This document shows positions 39 through 6,636 of a stretch of 64,000 bases of DNA, in pieces; position 1 is the first letter of the stretch; each line of letters begins with the position of its first letter. The notes under the pieces are model-generated. The model was not told the DNA's origin, ran no database searches, and was given only the letters and a program-made list of their open reading frames with translations. Location: assembly GCA_963833985.1 (NCBI GenBank), contig CAWIAD010000002.1, positions 256,001 to 320,000 on the forward strand. Reading direction: 5' to 3'. The stretch is from an uncultured Planctomycetaceae bacterium. Lineage in GTDB: Bacteria > Planctomycetota > Planctomycetia > Isosphaerales > Isosphaeraceae. A program made the position numbers and the translations under genes.

Positions 39-236
39 TTAAGTTCCGATCGTATCTTTTTTCCTTTTTCGCGCCTGGAAGCGACCAAACGTGGCTCCAA
101 CGGAAAACCCGATCGTTCCAAGGATGCCCATGTAATAGAATAGATCAAACTCCCCATTTAGGAACTGAGAGGGGAGGATCAGAACTGAAAGTAGGCCGAC
201 GACGGCTCCGACGAAGGCCGGCGTGACTGTTTTCAA
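39..236 (-). CDS. Small two-TM membrane protein, candidate immunity protein
   Basis: TTG start after GGTGGGAG gives MKTVTPAFVGAVVGLLSVLILP...YYMGILGTIGFSVGATFGRFQARKRKK: two hydrophobic helices and a basic tail. Lies directly downstream of the Rhs toxin gene. Start uncertain. Confidence 0.5.
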   Translation of the reverse strand: MKTVTPAFVGAVVGLLSVLILPSQFLNGEFDLFYYMGILGTIGFSVGATFGRFQARKRKKDTIGT

Positions 237-280
237 GCCAGGCTCCCACCTGAGGATCAAGGGGGGGGGATGCCTACTGC

Positions 281-1004
281 TTACCAGATTAGTTGAGGCA
301 TGTGGCCGGTGGAGTTGCTTTGGATGGGATAGGTGACCGGGGTGTTTGTGGGCCAAGGGTCAAGAATCAACGGTACGGGGTCGGGCCTTCTACCTGTGGT
401 AAGGCCCGTCAAGTCGTAAGGCATGGGGGTCACGATATTCATTTGGTGCTGGAGTCCACGGATTCGTGTACGTTCCCCATCTCACATTGAAGTATTTCCA
501 CTGCCTCGTGGACAGTGCCATGTTTACAGCGGTCGCCCAGTTGTCACAATCTGGGGTCCGCTCGTTTCGCAGAATTCGAGTGGTGCAGTAGCCTGGGGAG
601 GCGTCCGAGTGCGTCTTTAGAAAGTTTTGCACAGCATCTACGTAAAGCCTCGCTATCTCGGCTGCCTCGTCCTTGGCGTCTTGGGGAATGTCGTCGGGGT
701 CTAGCCGTCGGGCATTCTTTCCGAATCCTGTCTGAGGGTAACGCTGTAGCATTTGTATCAATTCACTTTTTACGGTTCCGACGTAGCCGTTGTAAAGCCA
801 TTGGATATTCTGAAGGTTCTTTTGTGCCGGAGTAATTCCGGACAGGCCGTCGTAGCCGCCGGGGGGCGGCAACTCAAGTAAACCAGTCGGATCAACCGCC
901 CACGTTGGTGCGTTGCCGACGTAGCGGTAAAGATTGGCGTCCCCGCCCTCGAAGGCGATCGGGTCTTCGGCGGTCCATCGACCAATGGTCGAGTCGTACG
1001 ACAT
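281..1004 (-). CDS. Stand-alone Rhs-core protein with C-terminal papain/transglutaminase-fold toxin domain (frameshift near 457)
   Basis: Begins MSYDSTIGRWTAEDPIAFEGGDANLYRYVGNAPTWAVDPTGL (Rhs core). The called ORF stops at 390, but another frame continues GLQHQMNIVTP...PLILDPW...QLIW* to 281. Confidence 0.8.
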
Positions 1005-1016
1005 GGAAAGCCCCCC

Positions 1017-1976
1017 CTAGCTAGGAACGTAACAGGCAACCTGTTCCACATCGGGGATTGGATCTCTCATCAGACGTTCGAGCACCTCTAGGGCGATGAC
1101 GTGTCGCTCAGTCTCAATCGGTAGGCCCGGGTAACGACGCCGAGCCGGAAAGTAGATTCTCAACTTCGGTGTTGCCGCCGGGACCCCGCCGCACAAGGTC
1201 ATTCTCCGCTGCTTGAGCAGGCCCCAAAGGCAGAGGTCGAGAAGTTGGTCGTCTGTCACCACGGAGCAGGCCGTTGCGAAGCAATCGACCGCCTCCCTGA
1301 GCCGTCCATTCGCCCGCAGATTGTGACCACGCTTCGACCAGGCGCGGGCAACTTCCTCACGAGGCGTAAGCGAGCGGAGGAACCTCGCCCCGGTCTCCCA
1401 GATCGTGCCACGGATGTCGACCGGCCAAGCGAGATAGTACGCATCGGGATGTGTATTGAGCCCCGTGTTGTTGATCTCGATGTTGAATCGTTCGCCGGAG
1501 GGGTCGTCCCACCGTGCGAACAAATGGCGGGCCGTCGTGACAAGCTTGAGCGGATAGCCGAGCCGCCGACCCACGGCTACCAGCAAGACCGGCAGCGAGG
1601 CGCACGTACCGCCGCGACCCTCGATGATCCCGTGAATAAAGTCGTCACGGGAGTCAGTGAACGACTCAGGATCGTCAACCCGTTCCTTGTTGTAACGGAC
1701 TCCCAGGCCGCGCCAGAGGACGTTCATTATCGCCACGACGCGAAAGATGCCCTCGGAGTTGTCATAGGCCTCGGGGCGACTACGGAACTGATCGAAGGCC
1801 CAAGCGGTCTGGCGGCGTGCCCACGCGGTTGCGTGATCCAACCAGGCGAGACAGGATTGGATATTCAGCCGCTCTGACCCCTGCAGCCCAACGGCTAAGG
1901 CCAGATCTACCGCCGCTATGTCGAAGGCGTCACACTCCGAGTCCATCGGATTGCGCAGCATTTCAAGAGTCAGCAT
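1017..1976 (-). CDS. Transglutaminase-like (SirB1/Transglut_core2-type) protein with TPR-like C-terminus
   Basis: Motifs GGTCASLPVLLVAVGRRLGYPL, RHLFARW and FNIE, followed by the TPR-like segment KRGHNLRANGRLREAVDCFATA. Confidence 0.8.
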   Translation of the reverse strand: MLTLEMLRNPMDSECDAFDIAAVDLALAVGLQGSERLNIQSCLAWLDHATAWARRQTAWAFDQFRSRPEAYDNSEGIFRVVAIMNVLWRGLGVRYNKERVDDPESFTDSRDDFIHGIIEGRGGTCASLPVLLVAVGRRLGYPLKLVTTARHLFARWDDPSGERFNIEINNTGLNTHPDAYYLAWPVDIRGTIWETGARFLRSLTPREEVARAWSKRGHNLRANGRLREAVDCFATACSVVTDDQLLDLCLWGLLKQRRMTLCGGVPAATPKLRIYFPARRRYPGLPIETERHVIALEVLERLMRDPIPDVEQVACYVPS

Positions 1977-2242: not shown

Positions 2243-4519
2243 TCAGGGTATCGGGCCGGACGGGAGATTCTGTTCGAGAAAGCGGGTCATGAGCTCGAAG
2301 AGATGGCGGCGCGTGCCCTCGCCCTCGCTGATGGCGTGGGTGCGATTGGGGTAGGCCATCATCGAGAAGGGCTTGTTCAACGCGATCAGCCGATCAACGA
2401 GCGCCTCGCAGTTCTGGTAGTGCACGTTGTCATCGCCCGTGCCGTGAACCAGCAGCAGGTTGCCTTTCAGTCCCCCGGCATGAGTGATGGGCGAGCCGTC
2501 CTTGTAGCCTTCCGGGTTGTCTTCGGGCAGGCCCATGTAGCGCTCCTGATAGATCGTGTCATAGTAGTGCTGGTCGGCGACGAAAGCCACGGCCACGCCG
2601 GTCTGGTACAGGTCCGGGTAGCGGAAGAGGCAGTCGAGGGTCATGGAACCGCCACCGCTCCAGCCCCAGATGGCCACCCGCCGGCGATCCAGAAAGGGCC
2701 AGCGATCGAGCAGCGCCTGGAGCGCCTGGGCCTGCTCGCGCGGGGCCAGGATGCCGACCTGGCGGTACACGCATTTTCGCCATTCGCGCCCTCGCGGTGC
2801 CGGGGTTCCACGGTTATCGACGCTGAGCACGATGTACCCCTTCTGGGCCAGCATGCGGTGCCAGAGATACGTGTCTCCGCCCCATTCATCGACGACGTTC
2901 TGTGACGCGGGCTCGCCATAGACGTGCACGAGCAGGGGATACTTTCGGGTCGGGTCGAAGCCGGGGGGCTTGATGCACCAGCCGTCGAGCGCTGCACCGC
3001 CGGGAATTTCCACCCGGAAGAACTCGCCGCGGTCGCCCACAAGGGCGTCAAGCTTGCCCCTGAGCTTTGCATTGCCCACGAGTGTCCGCACGACACGGTG
3101 ATCGGGCATGCTCACCAGCTCGGTGACCGGCGGCCGGCCGAACGACGAGAAGGTGTGGAAGGCCCAGGCGCAGCCCGGTGCGAACCCGTAATGATGCGTG
3201 CCGGGCTGATCCAGCGGCGTGACCCGGCGGGCCTGCCCGGAGCCATCGAGCGGTACCCGGTATAGGTAGCTCTGGGTCGGGTTCGCGGGCGAAGCCATGT
3301 AGTAGGCATGCTTGTGCTTCTCGTCGACGGCCACAACCCGGATGACGTCCATGTCGCCTGTCATGAGCCGCAGGGCGCGATTCTCACGGGTCCGCACGGT
3401 CTCCAGCCTGCGCCAGCCCTCCCGATCAGCCGTCCAGGTGAATGCCTGGCCGTGGTCGAAGAAATGGAGGTCATCGGCCACGTCCACCCAGGCGTCGTCC
3501 CGATCGGTGAGCACGCTCCGCACGCTGCCGTCGCGGGAATCCGCACGCAGCACCTCCAGCACATTCTGGCGGCGGTTCAGGTGCTGGATGAGCAGCTCGT
3601 GCGAGTCCGGAACCCAGCTCATGCGGACGATGTAGTTGTCGCGCGGGTCGCCTGGAACGGCGATCCACCGGGTCGCGCCGCCACCAACCGGAACCACGCC
3701 GACGCGCGCCGACGAGTTCTTCTGGCCGGTGCGCGGATAGCGCACGGGAACGACCCTGGGGTAGAGCCCGGCCGCGGTATTCAGGATCGGATATTCGGGA
3801 ACGCCCGTGCTGTCGAGCTGCCAGTACGCGATCGACTTGCCGTCGGGGCTCCAGCGGTACCCGTTGCGCAGGAAGAGTTCTTCCTCGTACACCCAGTCGA
3901 ACGTGCCGTTGACGAGGGTTGGTGACCTGTCGGTCGTGAGCGCCGTGATCTGGCCGGTGGCGGCCTCCTCGACATACAGGTTGTTGTCGCGCACGTAGGC
4001 GACCTTCTGTCCCGCCGGGTCGAACGTTGCGAACATCAGCGAGGCCTCCGGCGCCTTGCCGCCCAGCTTGCGCAAGGTCCGGGTCTCTCGGTCGAACAGC
4101 CAGTAGTCGCCGCGCGTGTTCATCCGCCAGACCTTGCGGGTGTTCGTGAACAACAGCAGCTTGCGGCTGTCCTTGCTGATCGCAAAATCGGCGGGATGGA
4201 GCGGCTCACGTGCCCCGCTCGAAGTCAGTTCGGTGGTGGAAACGAGCACCTCGCGCCGGCCGCTGGCCGGATCATGGCGGACGATCTCCGGCCGTTTCCC
4301 GTCCTCGGACGCTTCCAGCGCCAGATACGCGGAGCCGTCCTCCAGCCAGTGATGCGTGGCGGAAGACTCACCGTCAAACTCTTCGGACGTGATCCGGGCC
4401 ACCGTGAGTTGCGCGGGTGATACCGGCGGCGCCTGGGCCATGCCCCGGTGCGGCACCAAGAGCATTATCGCGAGAAGACTGGAGGCCTGCAACCGGCAGC
4501 AACGAGGTGAAAGCAGCAC
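2243..4519 (-). CDS. S9B dipeptidyl peptidase IV family serine peptidase
   Basis: GTFDWVYEEEL, nucleophile motif GWSGGG, DDNVH and THAI catalytic residues. Signal peptide; GTG start at 4519 follows GGAG. Confidence 0.93.
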   Translation of the reverse strand: MLLSPRCCRLQASSLLAIMLLVPHRGMAQAPPVSPAQLTVARITSEEFDGESSATHHWLEDGSAYLALEASEDGKRPEIVRHDPASGRREVLVSTTELTSSGAREPLHPADFAISKDSRKLLLFTNTRKVWRMNTRGDYWLFDRETRTLRKLGGKAPEASLMFATFDPAGQKVAYVRDNNLYVEEAATGQITALTTDRSPTLVNGTFDWVYEEELFLRNGYRWSPDGKSIAYWQLDSTGVPEYPILNTAAGLYPRVVPVRYPRTGQKNSSARVGVVPVGGGATRWIAVPGDPRDNYIVRMSWVPDSHELLIQHLNRRQNVLEVLRADSRDGSVRSVLTDRDDAWVDVADDLHFFDHGQAFTWTADREGWRRLETVRTRENRALRLMTGDMDVIRVVAVDEKHKHAYYMASPANPTQSYLYRVPLDGSGQARRVTPLDQPGTHHYGFAPGCAWAFHTFSSFGRPPVTELVSMPDHRVVRTLVGNAKLRGKLDALVGDRGEFFRVEIPGGAALDGWCIKPPGFDPTRKYPLLVHVYGEPASQNVVDEWGGDTYLWHRMLAQKGYIVLSVDNRGTPAPRGREWRKCVYRQVGILAPREQAQALQALLDRWPFLDRRRVAIWGWSGGGSMTLDCLFRYPDLYQTGVAVAFVADQHYYDTIYQERYMGLPEDNPEGYKDGSPITHAGGLKGNLLLVHGTGDDNVHYQNCEALVDRLIALNKPFSMMAYPNRTHAISEGEGTRRHLFELMTRFLEQNLPSGPIP

Positions 4520-5022
4520 GTATGACTCCCTGCGAGCGTGAGGAACGCGGTCCACTGCCGCCATGAAATCCGACAGCACGATCCATGTCATCCGTATAAC
4601 CCGGCCCCGACTTTCGGCCCGTAACGATTAAACCGCCGGGTTTTCCGTAATCCTGTCAAATACTGTGGAGAAGGGAGCTACCCTTTGTGTATCCAAGTTG
4701 TCTCGCCATTGTCCCGACGGCCCCGAGGCCGGGCAAGATAGCTGCATCCCGGGATTGCTGGCAAAGATCTCGGGATGGTGTTCATGGCAAGGGACGGAAA
4801 ACTGGGTCGGCATCGCTGCCGCCCGATCATCCCCGCTCGAGGAGGAGAAAGACAGAAAGGATAGGAGGCCCCGCCGGTCGAGTCTGGGGGGCGACGTCAG
4901 GGAAGGTTGGTTCTCCGTGGGCACTTGCATGTGCGAGTGCCAACCGGACGGCGAGCGGCGAGCGCCCAGCGCAACCAGCGCGCCGGACACCTTGATACGC
5001 CCAACATGCGCCGGAGCCTGCC

Positions 5023-6636
5023 ATGCCGTTCTACACCATCAGGTCGCTTGGAGAGCGTCTCGCTGTCGTCTGCAAGGAAGTGTGTGATGGAGCCAGCGGA
5101 AGTGGCGGTGCACGGGAACTCCGCAAAGGACGACAGCGCCGGCGACCGTGTTGCGACCCGCTCGAAGGACGCTTGCTCATGACCGTCACGCCGGGCTACG
5201 ACTACGTGCTCTCAGGATATAGCTGGCCGGATCCCGCACACATCACCTACAGCATCGCCCCGGACGGCGTGTTCTGGGACCACGGCACGAATAACCTGAA
5301 TGCAACCTTCAATGCCAGGTTCGGCACCAGCGGCGCATGGCAGGCTCAGATCGCTCAAGCCCTGGCGACCTGGGAGTCGGTCGCCAACATCAACATCGCG
5401 CCGGTGTCCGACGGCCCGTACGACCTGAACACGCTCGGGCTGTCCCAGGGAGACCTGCGGTTCGGTGATATCCGGGTCGGCGGCTATTCCTTCCTCGACA
5501 CGACCATCACCCTGGCGCAGACTTACTTTCCACCCCCGAATGGCGCGACGGCCGCGGGAGACGTCGAGCTGAACACGTCGATGAGCTTCAATATCGGATC
5601 GACGTATGATCTCTACAGCGTCGTGCTGCACGAGACCGGCCACTCGCTGGGGCTGGAGGAGGCGCCCAATCCGACAGAGGTGATGGCCATCAATTACGCG
5701 GGCGTCCGCTCGGGCCTGCAACCCGGCGACATCGCGGGCATCCAGGCCATTTACGGGGCAAGAACGCAGGACGCGTACCAGGCGCAGGGCATCGGCAATG
5801 CGTTCTATGCTCCCATCGAGATCTCCAGCAAGCTCACCACCTCGAACCAAACAGTGATTTCGGGGGTCTCGCTGGCGACCATCGGGGATACCGAGTACTA
5901 CTCGTTCGTGGCTCCAAGCTATGCCTCGGGACGGCTCCAGGTCACGGCTGCCGCGGCCGGCGTGAGCATGCTCAGCCCCCAGGTGAGCCTCTATAATGGC
6001 TCGGGGGCACTGCTGGCCCAGGCGAGCAACCCGTCTGCCTGGAGCGACAACGTGACGGCCAGCATTGCCAGCCTGACGCCAGGCCAGCGCTACTTCGTGG
6101 CAGTGACGGGCGACACCCACAACGTCTTCGACGTGGGCGCTTACCAGCTTGTTGTCTCGCTGCCGCAGAGCACCCCGCCCGTTCCGCAGTCTCCGACCCC
6201 ACAGCCTCCCGTCACGCCCACGCCCACGCCGACACCAACACCGACTCCGACACCGACTCCCACGCCTACGCCGCGGCCTACAGCCACGAATACCACTCCG
6301 CAGAGCGCGCTGCGGCTGGGCCGGATCACGCAATCGACTCTGCCGAACCTCGTCTTCAGCTCGGGCCCATCCGTCGAGTACTTCAACTTCCAGGCGGGCG
6401 GTGCGGGGACGGTCCAGATCAGCGCGGCCGGGGCGCTGGTTCAGGTGTTCAATGCGCGCGGCAGGCTGATCGCCCAGGGCACGAACCAGGTGAACATCGC
6501 GGGAGCAAAGGCGGGGACGGCGTACTCTCTCAGGATCAGGCCGGCGAGCAATCCTCCCTTGGCGTCCTACAGCCTCTCGATCGCAATCAAGCGTCCGCTG
6601 CCCGCCGTCCGGCGCGCCACGCGGCCCAGGCGATGA
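5023..6636 (+). CDS. Exported matrixin (M10-like) metalloprotease with PPC-like domains and a PT linker
   Basis: RRRPCCDPLEGRLLM export motif, ALATWE, GDIRVG, HETGHSLGLEE and Met-turn EVMA. The true start is probably slightly downstream of 5023. Confidence 0.85.
   Translation: MPFYTIRSLGERLAVVCKEVCDGASGSGGARELRKGRQRRRPCCDPLEGRLLMTVTPGYDYVLSGYSWPDPAHITYSIAPDGVFWDHGTNNLNATFNARFGTSGAWQAQIAQALATWESVANINIAPVSDGPYDLNTLGLSQGDLRFGDIRVGGYSFLDTTITLAQTYFPPPNGATAAGDVELNTSMSFNIGSTYDLYSVVLHETGHSLGLEEAPNPTEVMAINYAGVRSGLQPGDIAGIQAIYGARTQDAYQAQGIGNAFYAPIEISSKLTTSNQTVISGVSLATIGDTEYYSFVAPSYASGRLQVTAAAAGVSMLSPQVSLYNGSGALLAQASNPSAWSDNVTASIASLTPGQRYFVAVTGDTHNVFDVGAYQLVVSLPQSTPPVPQSPTPQPPVTPTPTPTPTPTPTPTPTPTPRPTATNTTPQSALRLGRITQSTLPNLVFSSGPSVEYFNFQAGGAGTVQISAAGALVQVFNARGRLIAQGTNQVNIAGAKAGTAYSLRIRPASNPPLASYSLSIAIKRPLPAVRRATRPRR
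6211..6282 (+). repeat. Coding Pro-Thr (PT)n linker repeat
   Basis: Encodes VTPTPTPTPTPTPTPTPTPTPRPT with varied codons. Confidence 0.85.

Follow-up and report, generated by a model that had tools for sequence, protein, structure and literature searches.

At one end of a 64,000-nucleotide stretch of DNA (hereafter the window; positions 256,001 to 320,000 of contig CAWIAD010000002.1, assembly GCA_963833985.1) from an uncultured Planctomycetaceae bacterium of the Isosphaeraceae, three co-oriented genes are found that very probably represent a dedicated, cage-less Rhs polymorphic-toxin system of Planctomycetota and Verrucomicrobiota. The genome (G000) consists of 10.2 Mb in two contigs with a guanine-plus-cytosine (GC) content of 65%. 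As a preliminary description of the sequence had stated, the three genes share one orientation; all lie on the minus strand. The first (1017-1976) encodes a protein of 319 aa, P0001, which has an N-terminal helical domain, a transglutaminase-like core (Cys125, His151, Glu167) and TPR-like helices, and to which we refer as the enzyme. Between its TAG stop codon and the ATG of the Rhs open reading frame (ORF) there is a spacer of 12 nt (1005-1016) with a G-rich, ribosome-site-like run, again in agreement with that description. The Rhs ORF, P0002 (390-1004, 204 aa), begins with an Rhs half-core leader (residues 1-42; 879-1004), recognized by its match to TIGR03696, that contains Asp14 and Asp38 (DPIA-X20-DPTG) and lacks the upstream Arg of other Rhs cores. 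A C-terminal toxin-like domain follows in two pieces: the first (452-878, the boundary at the break being approximate) carries a conserved Cys153, and the second (281-451), which lies in another frame and is similar to the homologue P0154, carries a conserved His and Asp-Pro-Trp. The third gene (39-236, inside an ORF at 39-356), which encodes a hydrophobic protein of 65 aa when read from a TTG, is a candidate immunity gene on the basis of its position only.

Of the 76 positions of TIGR03696, residues 3-42 of P0002 cover only 38-76, the second half, in line with the earlier observation that the ATG sits at the Rhs core and that there is no YD-repeat barrel. The two aspartates, which make up the core motif as it is defined in parts of the papers on Rhs proteins (PMC10684867, PMC8636562, PMC8765631), are invariant in a 50-row alignment (A2), and their spacing in P0002 is 20 compared to a published spacing of 18-19. 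A profile of the leader aligns to residues 651-690 of YenC2, for which a section of PMC8455502 gives R650, D663 and D686 as the autoproteolysis residues. The equivalent of YenC2 R650, an Arg located 13 residues before the first Asp, is absent from the leader here.

The enzyme has 2255 relatives among cluster representatives at E ≤ 0.001, and 668 at 1e-30. For the scan, the genome matches were limited to the best 80 of 308, which gave 78 loci, and the metagenome matches to the best 80 of at least 534; some loci were added to these. Firstly, in the genome set (123 loci, from which 9 duplicates were removed, leaving 87 strong ones of at least 150 bits and 27 weak ones), an Rhs core was encoded next to, or fused to, the enzyme in 72 of the 81 strong loci with at least 350 nt downstream, versus 1 of the 22 weak, distant ones. 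Secondly, 41 of the 46 scorable loci of the metagenome set (80 loci, 17 duplicates removed) were linked in the same way. Combined, 113 of 126 scorable relatives have an Rhs core encoded by the following gene or fused to the enzyme, a linkage far above chance, and the lack of linkage that would have spoken against the original proposal was not seen; in several of the unlinked cases a mini-Rhs gene is located directly upstream of the enzyme gene. The linkage spans the whole enzyme tree, although kin in this tree are not independent. The named hosts belong to several phyla, mostly Planctomycetota and Verrucomicrobiota, and the closest named relatives among the matches listed (69-84% identical) are Isosphaeraceae. 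ORFs with YD repeats occur in only 3 of the 87 loci, whose median length is 8.4 kb. The flanks are unrelated between loci: no conserved third gene, transporter, secretion gene, donor, carrier, regulator or cyclase was found in them, and the commonest unrelated neighbour family is present in 5 of the 87 loci. Distant matches to the enzyme core and its TPR part (L105-L125; mostly frames of ~500-1100 aa), which are not accompanied by an Rhs core except in L110, form a further uncharacterised subfamily. In L143 (737-3981), ORFs that by eye resemble a transposase, an ATPase and a resolvase lie directly upstream of an enzyme gene that is 81% identical.

It had also been noted that the enzyme's TAG is in frame with the Rhs ATG, so that read-through would give a fusion protein. 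We rejected this possibility: in 50 relatives the relative frames are distributed 18/15/17 and the stop codons are mixed (TGA 25, TAG 14, TAA 11), and thus neither frame nor stop is conserved and the in-frame TAG here is due to chance. True fusions do exist elsewhere, in 6 of 150 representatives and in L057; some of these resemble a loss of the stop codon, and four retain the upstream Arg.

Classification of 149 strong loci by the start of the core shows how strictly this start is placed. In class I (53 loci, P0002 included) a Met is located at the core itself, in class II (51 loci) a hydrophobic, signal-like peptide precedes the core, and in class III (11 loci) the leader is divergent or shortened; of the remaining loci, 3 keep ordinary upstream core sequence, 1 is a fusion and 30 lack a core, many of these lying on short contigs. 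Counting from the G of the GRW motif, the Met of class I occupies -6, or -7 if Ser or Gly follows (7 cases, six in one close group), and an N-terminal Met is removed before small residues. Signal-type cassettes (n=64), which were selected by hydrophobicity and an upstream Met, have Ala or Gly at -7 in 62 cases and Ala, Ser, Gly or Val at -9 in 61, and small residues at these positions fit the signal-peptidase rule. The predicted mature N-terminus is thus at -6 by all routes, because the start Met, Met-Ser/Gly and signal peptides converge on it. In ordinary cores, position -7 is occupied by Arg (or Trp), and most linked genes begin one residue after that Arg; the few linked leaders that start off-register or retain the upstream Arg include four fusions. 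A ribosome-site-like motif precedes 48 of 50 parsed class I starts, versus 14% of random ATGs, and in close relatives an AGGAG overlapping the stop codon is found at the position of the spacer. As a control, we analyzed 70 core matches from 61 related genomes (30 loci, and 40 short-ORF matches chosen among 150 listed, with 126 further ones). Only 4 of the 70 start at the register, all of them beside an enzyme gene, and none of the 66 away from an enzyme does so. The first leader residue varies (M 42, Y 15, F 11, and others; n=85). Of the two aspartates, the second is retained in 148 of 149 leaders; the first is lost from those of L014, L016 and P0153, and yet the linkage with the enzyme stays. 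The divergent leaders of L032, L037, L046, L070 and L183 begin with Met-Tyr and retain only the second half of the core. The linkage, the register, the ribosome sites and signal peptides and the rarity of YD cages together argue for a dedicated system, as had been proposed, and not for a relic of a deletion.

The domains behind the leader are diverse, the 105 C-termini studied (a few ordinary orphans included) falling into 89 clusters. A Pfam match at E ≤ 0.01 was obtained for 24 of them, among others to HINT (4), phospholipase A2-like (4), TGL (3), M35 peptidase and AMOP, and one C-terminus has a sub-threshold match to HNH. The HINT domains behind the mini-Rhs leader in L040, L049, L054 and L071 constitute a second self-processing site. 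The loci L141 and L144 share their upstream genes and have different C-termini. In 17 loci, two to five cassettes accompany one enzyme, and in these arrays the classes are never mixed. According to a permissive rule, an ORF of at least 55 aa lies downstream of 97 of 99 cores, and 59 of these ORFs are hydrophobic. Class II C-termini are richer in Cys (3.2% versus 1.8%). A hydrophobic N-terminal segment is present on 41 of 51 class II enzymes and on none of the 53 class I enzymes, which is suggestive of enzyme and substrate sharing a compartment; P0001 itself has no N-terminal membrane segment. Among class I genomes, a sheath gene of a type VI secretion system (T6SS) was detected in 12 of 28, and among class II genomes in 7 of 30, most of these genomes being of uncertain completeness; it was not found in G040, which is 99% complete. 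G000 does carry a T6SS.

In the case of P0002, the Rhs core was as described earlier, but the toxin is not contained whole in the 204 aa. Its homologues P0153, P0154 and P0155 extend beyond the end of P0002; residues 15-179 of P0002 share 65% identity with P0153, and the translation of 284-451 in another frame is 79% identical (44/56 residues) to residues 103-158 of P0154. A profile likewise gives two matches in the window, at 450-752 and 284-472. Judging from these alignments, a frameshift near 450 divides the toxin gene, and the product as assembled would lack the His and the Asp, because both are in the second piece. The frameshift may be a mutation or an assembly error, the latter being possible because other genes within 11 kb are split in the assembly. 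A DUF7133/cytochrome c gene (L001:5590-9181) is in three pieces, and an M56 peptidase gene (L001:12924-15330) is split between frames and starts at profile position 194; the assembly may be indel-prone. In a read check on a small share of a single run, zero reads lay over the break. Within the toxin family, the Cys and the Asp-Pro-Trp are invariant in four homologues, and the His aligns in three; the aligner displaced the fourth by two columns, and there the His can be matched by eye. A distant family member with the same conserved Cys, His and Asp-Pro-Trp is an ordinary Rhs orphan in genome G482. The order Cys, His, Asp-Pro-Trp suggests a papain-like or transglutaminase toxin, and the domain here would accordingly be a putative Cys-His-Asp papain-like domain. 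Searches of Pfam, NCBIfam, PDB and Atlas with it gave zero matches, a metagenome scan found nothing, and its structure model (predicted local distance difference test, pLDDT, 34) is unusable. The candidate immunity ORF at 39-236 lies downstream of the second piece, with 44 nt between them; it has no Pfam or NCBIfam match, no homologue was found in the single search made, and it shows no similarity to the membrane protein encoded behind a related toxin in L292.

The partner gene fits its initial assignment as a Cys-His-Glu transglutaminase-like/TPR protein. P0001 scores 31.7 bits against the Pfam family Transglut_core2 (PF13369), above the curated cut-off of 23.5, and gives weak matches to TPR; 75 of 94 aligned members match Transglut_core2 at E ≤ 0.001. 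All 149 relatives have Cys125, His151 and Arg216, and position 167 is E in 144 and D in 5; these four positions lie outside the search pattern, which forced Arg137-138. The structure model of the enzyme is confident (pLDDT 94). Its top fold match is menin (Z 13.7, root-mean-square deviation (rmsd) 9.2, 246 aligned), followed at Z 6-9 by bacterial transglutaminases (Z 9.3 and 8.3; 4xz7: Z 9.3, rmsd 4.3, 150 aligned), PNGase, LapG (Z 7.2) and acetyltransferases, and arylamine N-acetyltransferases (Z about 6-7) and an amide synthase are among the matches. Foldseek also ranked menin first, but without a match at E ≤ 0.001. The family thus has Cys-His-acid residues, conserved in the alignment, on what is modelled as a transglutaminase-like fold. 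Co-folding of enzyme and leader gave a score of 0.09 against a mark of 0.32, which weighs neither way. Three relatives (P0004, P0007 and P0013) have two tandem enzyme domains, and the first copy in P0007 and P0013 apparently lacks the catalytic Cys, as judged by eye.

The pair resembles several known systems in part. Like the Rhs/YD polymorphic toxins (Rhs1, RhsA, Tse5 and the C subunits of Tc toxins), the core ends in two DPxG-type motifs and is followed by a variable domain, and one C-terminal family is shared with ordinary Rhs. Unlike them, the half-core system has no YD barrel, PAAR or plug, retains only the last ~40 core residues, has no equivalent of YenC2 R650, and is preceded by a dedicated partner gene with an intact active site. 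With orphan rhs-CT/rhsI cassettes it has in common a short core, a variable C-terminus, a small downstream gene and, sometimes, an array. However, the mini-Rhs gene is not located behind a full-length rhs gene, has, right where the core begins, a ribosome site or signal peptide of its own, and, in contrast to the orphan rhs-CT in related genomes, does not keep the upstream core. Like ordinary Transglut_core2 proteins (SirB1/YchA, FBXO21) and menin, the enzyme combines a transglutaminase-like core with TPR helices, but it forms a separate subfamily. None of the three matches that we presumed to be SirB1-like has an adjoining Rhs core. A passage in PMC10318531 states that the function of Transglut_core2 is unknown. 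Transglutaminase domains of polymorphic toxins are described in part of PMC3482391 as inactive, having lost the triad, and fused ahead of RHS repeats; like the enzyme, these domains are tied to Rhs toxins and sometimes follow a signal or membrane helix, whereas the triad of the enzyme is conserved, its gene is usually separate and it has no repeats. Finally, LapG/DvhG is a Cys protease with a transglutaminase fold that removes the N-terminal module of a dedicated substrate, DvhG being likely membrane-bound (a section of PMC10990149), and McjB is a transglutaminase-like leader-processing protease (a passage of PMC10318531). This analogy is functional only: neither Peptidase_C93 nor Transglut_core3 is among the 9 families matched by the 94 aligned members, the flanks lack a conserved gene for a regulator, transporter or cyclase, and the substrate here is an Rhs half-core.

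The cassette lies in an islet of lower GC (1-2250; 0.53-0.63 versus 0.65 for the genome), whose third-position GC of 0.56-0.72 compares with 0.84 for the adjoining gene of a dipeptidyl peptidase IV-like (S9) protein (2243-4591, minus strand; Pfam DPPIV_N and Peptidase_S9). The latter is outside the system and appears to be its insertion target. The 3' part of the peptidase gene contains a 151-bp direct repeat (2268-2418) that is 97% identical to a left copy just outside the window (G000:C2:255840-255990), which carries an alternative 3' end of the gene. The repeats and the two alternative peptidase C-termini resemble an attachment-site pair flanking a 2.3-kb islet without integrase, and among the ORFs listed for 1-2250 there is no unexplained one big enough for an integrase. 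We infer that the cassette was inserted into the end of the peptidase gene without an integrase of its own. The DNA of the peptidase gene has zero blastn matches in the other 86 enzyme loci, and none of 14 peptidase loci (one of them G000 itself) showed an empty insertion site with the left-hand genes within 1.5-kb flanks. Further toxin/immunity pairs had been envisaged to the left of the window; within 16 kb there are none, and a BlaI-like repressor gene and then the M56 peptidase gene are present there instead. The cassette was unmatched in viral contigs, phages and plasmids, and a scan for promoters and terminators gave a result at chance level. G000 also contains a second, ordinary Transglut_core2 gene elsewhere and two ordinary Rhs loci (G000:C2:4673763-4684709 and 5611009-5625539), which are >4 Mb away on the contig, encode Rhs proteins of ~2000 aa, are each followed by orphans of 550-620 aa and have one C-terminus in common. 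An origin of the cassette from these loci was rejected, their cores being 38-54% identical to that of P0002. Elsewhere in the window, an ORF at 5023-6636 combines an HExxH motif with a linker of Pro-Thr repeats and looks by eye like a secreted metallopeptidase.

How might such a system work? Next to the enzyme gene, the loci show an Rhs half-core of ~40 residues with a variable domain at its C-terminal side and, as a rule, a small ORF downstream. In the mechanism that we propose, the system would be a mobile cassette that has dropped the YD-repeat cage of Rhs. The enzyme would recognize the half-core as its leader, both being in one compartment: in the cytoplasm in class I and, anchored to the membrane, outside the cytoplasm in class II. 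Acting as a cysteine peptidase, it would free the C-terminal domain at or near DPxG-L and so replace the cage-dependent aspartyl self-cleavage. Cys-dependent cleavage is favoured because the Arg is gone, because some leaders lack the first Asp, and because LapG and McjB provide a precedent. For the proposal as a whole, Cys-dependent leader recognition together with toxin release by the enzyme, the chances fall, in our view, just short of even; peptidase activity as the main chemistry of the enzyme is somewhat the better bet, provided that the system is a dedicated one.

Several points weigh against this mechanism or the observations behind it. It is drawn from sequence, a model and analogy, and the shared fold also supports acyl transfer, as the acetyltransferase matches (Z about 6-7) illustrate. 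In 13 of the 126 loci the enzyme has no core as next gene, and the first DP is kept in 80 of 85 leaders, as expected if self-cleavage persists. The match between compartments amounts to 3 to 5 independent tree pairs (sign test p 0.5), which are too few for it to serve as phylogenetically independent evidence, a use that we rejected; moreover, 19 of the 53 class I enzymes have no upstream in-frame stretch to score. The classes themselves include 14 of the 149 loci that were reclassified by eye, and signal peptides were assigned on a criterion of hydrophobicity. Toxicity is only inferred, because 81 of the 105 C-termini have no Pfam match.

On the one hand, the enzyme might cut and then join. 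The half-core would in this case be a leader like those of ribosomally synthesized and post-translationally modified peptides (RiPPs), the enzyme would cut after DPxG, and the N-terminal (or another) amine of the leader would resolve the acyl-enzyme, thereby arming, tagging or anchoring, with no cage involved, any one of a large set of interchangeable toxin domains; we regard this combined reading as unlikely, though worth bearing in mind. Slightly less probable still is that the enzyme works in general as an acyl- or peptidyl-transferase, with the free amine at the N-terminus of the leader as acceptor, by N-acylation, by head-to-tail ligation after cutting, or by anchoring to a carrier or the envelope. 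A transferase explains the register best, since a pure leader peptidase would not require an N-terminus fixed by start Met, Met-Ser/Gly and signal peptides alike, and transglutaminases, arylamine N-acetyltransferases and the amide synthase are among the fold matches. However, the first leader residue is variable, a few linked leaders are off-register or have the upstream Arg, the flanks hold no conserved donor, carrier or third gene, and the register may merely mark the start of the bound leader.

On the other hand, cleavage may have stayed with the leader. The enzyme would then be a chaperone or pseudo-cage that folds the half-core and lends the missing Arg in trans, so that the two aspartates self-cleave and the Cys is secondary. 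This would explain why both are largely kept, and R216, which is outside the search pattern and present in 149 of 149 relatives, could be that Arg. The top fold match, menin, is a peptide-binding scaffold, and a passage in PMC10318531 describes human menin as lacking the catalytic Cys. We nevertheless consider this improbable: Cys and His are kept in 149 of 149 enzymes, unlike in the inactive transglutaminase domains of Rhs toxins (as described in part of PMC3482391), leaders without the first Asp are still linked, and R216 may be structural. More doubtful yet is an intracellular toxin-antitoxin or defence module without delivery, with the mini-Rhs produced internally and regulated by the enzyme. 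It would be consistent with the lack of an export signal in class I, with the finding of a T6SS sheath gene in fewer than half of the class I genomes (12 of 28), with the unrelated flanks and with the location of the cassette in an islet between direct repeats. There is also a precedent in the internal starts inside ordinary rhs genes of Salmonella, which give internally expressed type II toxin-antitoxin modules (according to a section of PMC7043789). But such a module has no need for a leader at a fixed register, and the signal peptides in 51 of 149 loci, the Cys-richer C-termini and the phospholipase A2-like, M35 peptidase and HINT domains speak against it. That the locus is a chance deletion relic, or an ordinary orphan rhs-CT cassette that adjoins a gene unrelated to it, is very improbable indeed: the P0002 gene is frameshifted, its C-terminal family recurs on an ordinary Rhs orphan in G482 and G000 has two full-length Rhs loci with orphans, but 113 of 126 relatives are linked across several phyla, ordinary orphans retain the upstream core and the Arg, and ribosome sites and signal peptides are found at the core start.

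A cage-less Rhs system with a transglutaminase-like partner is apparently undescribed: we found no description of the pair of enzyme and half-core in the literature, in a search mostly outside subscription papers and excluding supplements such as the neighbourhood tables of PMC3482391. In the structural papers, as far as the relevant sections of PMC10684867, PMC8636562 and PMC8765631 go, the Rhs core is a self-cleaving plug of the cage. Its survival without a cage, trimmed to a register and paired with an enzyme across phyla, implies that polymorphic toxins of the poorly studied Planctomycetota and Verrucomicrobiota have another chemistry and another route of delivery. With the half-core, Transglut_core2 and a bacterial protein of menin-like fold with intact catalytic residues gain a candidate substrate that is short and defined, and a pair of leader and enzyme that takes very different cargo could serve as a tool for processing or ligation. 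If the RiPP-like leader reading is true, it would add a new maturation route for polymorphic toxins and give a first activity for bacterial Transglut_core2/menin-like proteins.

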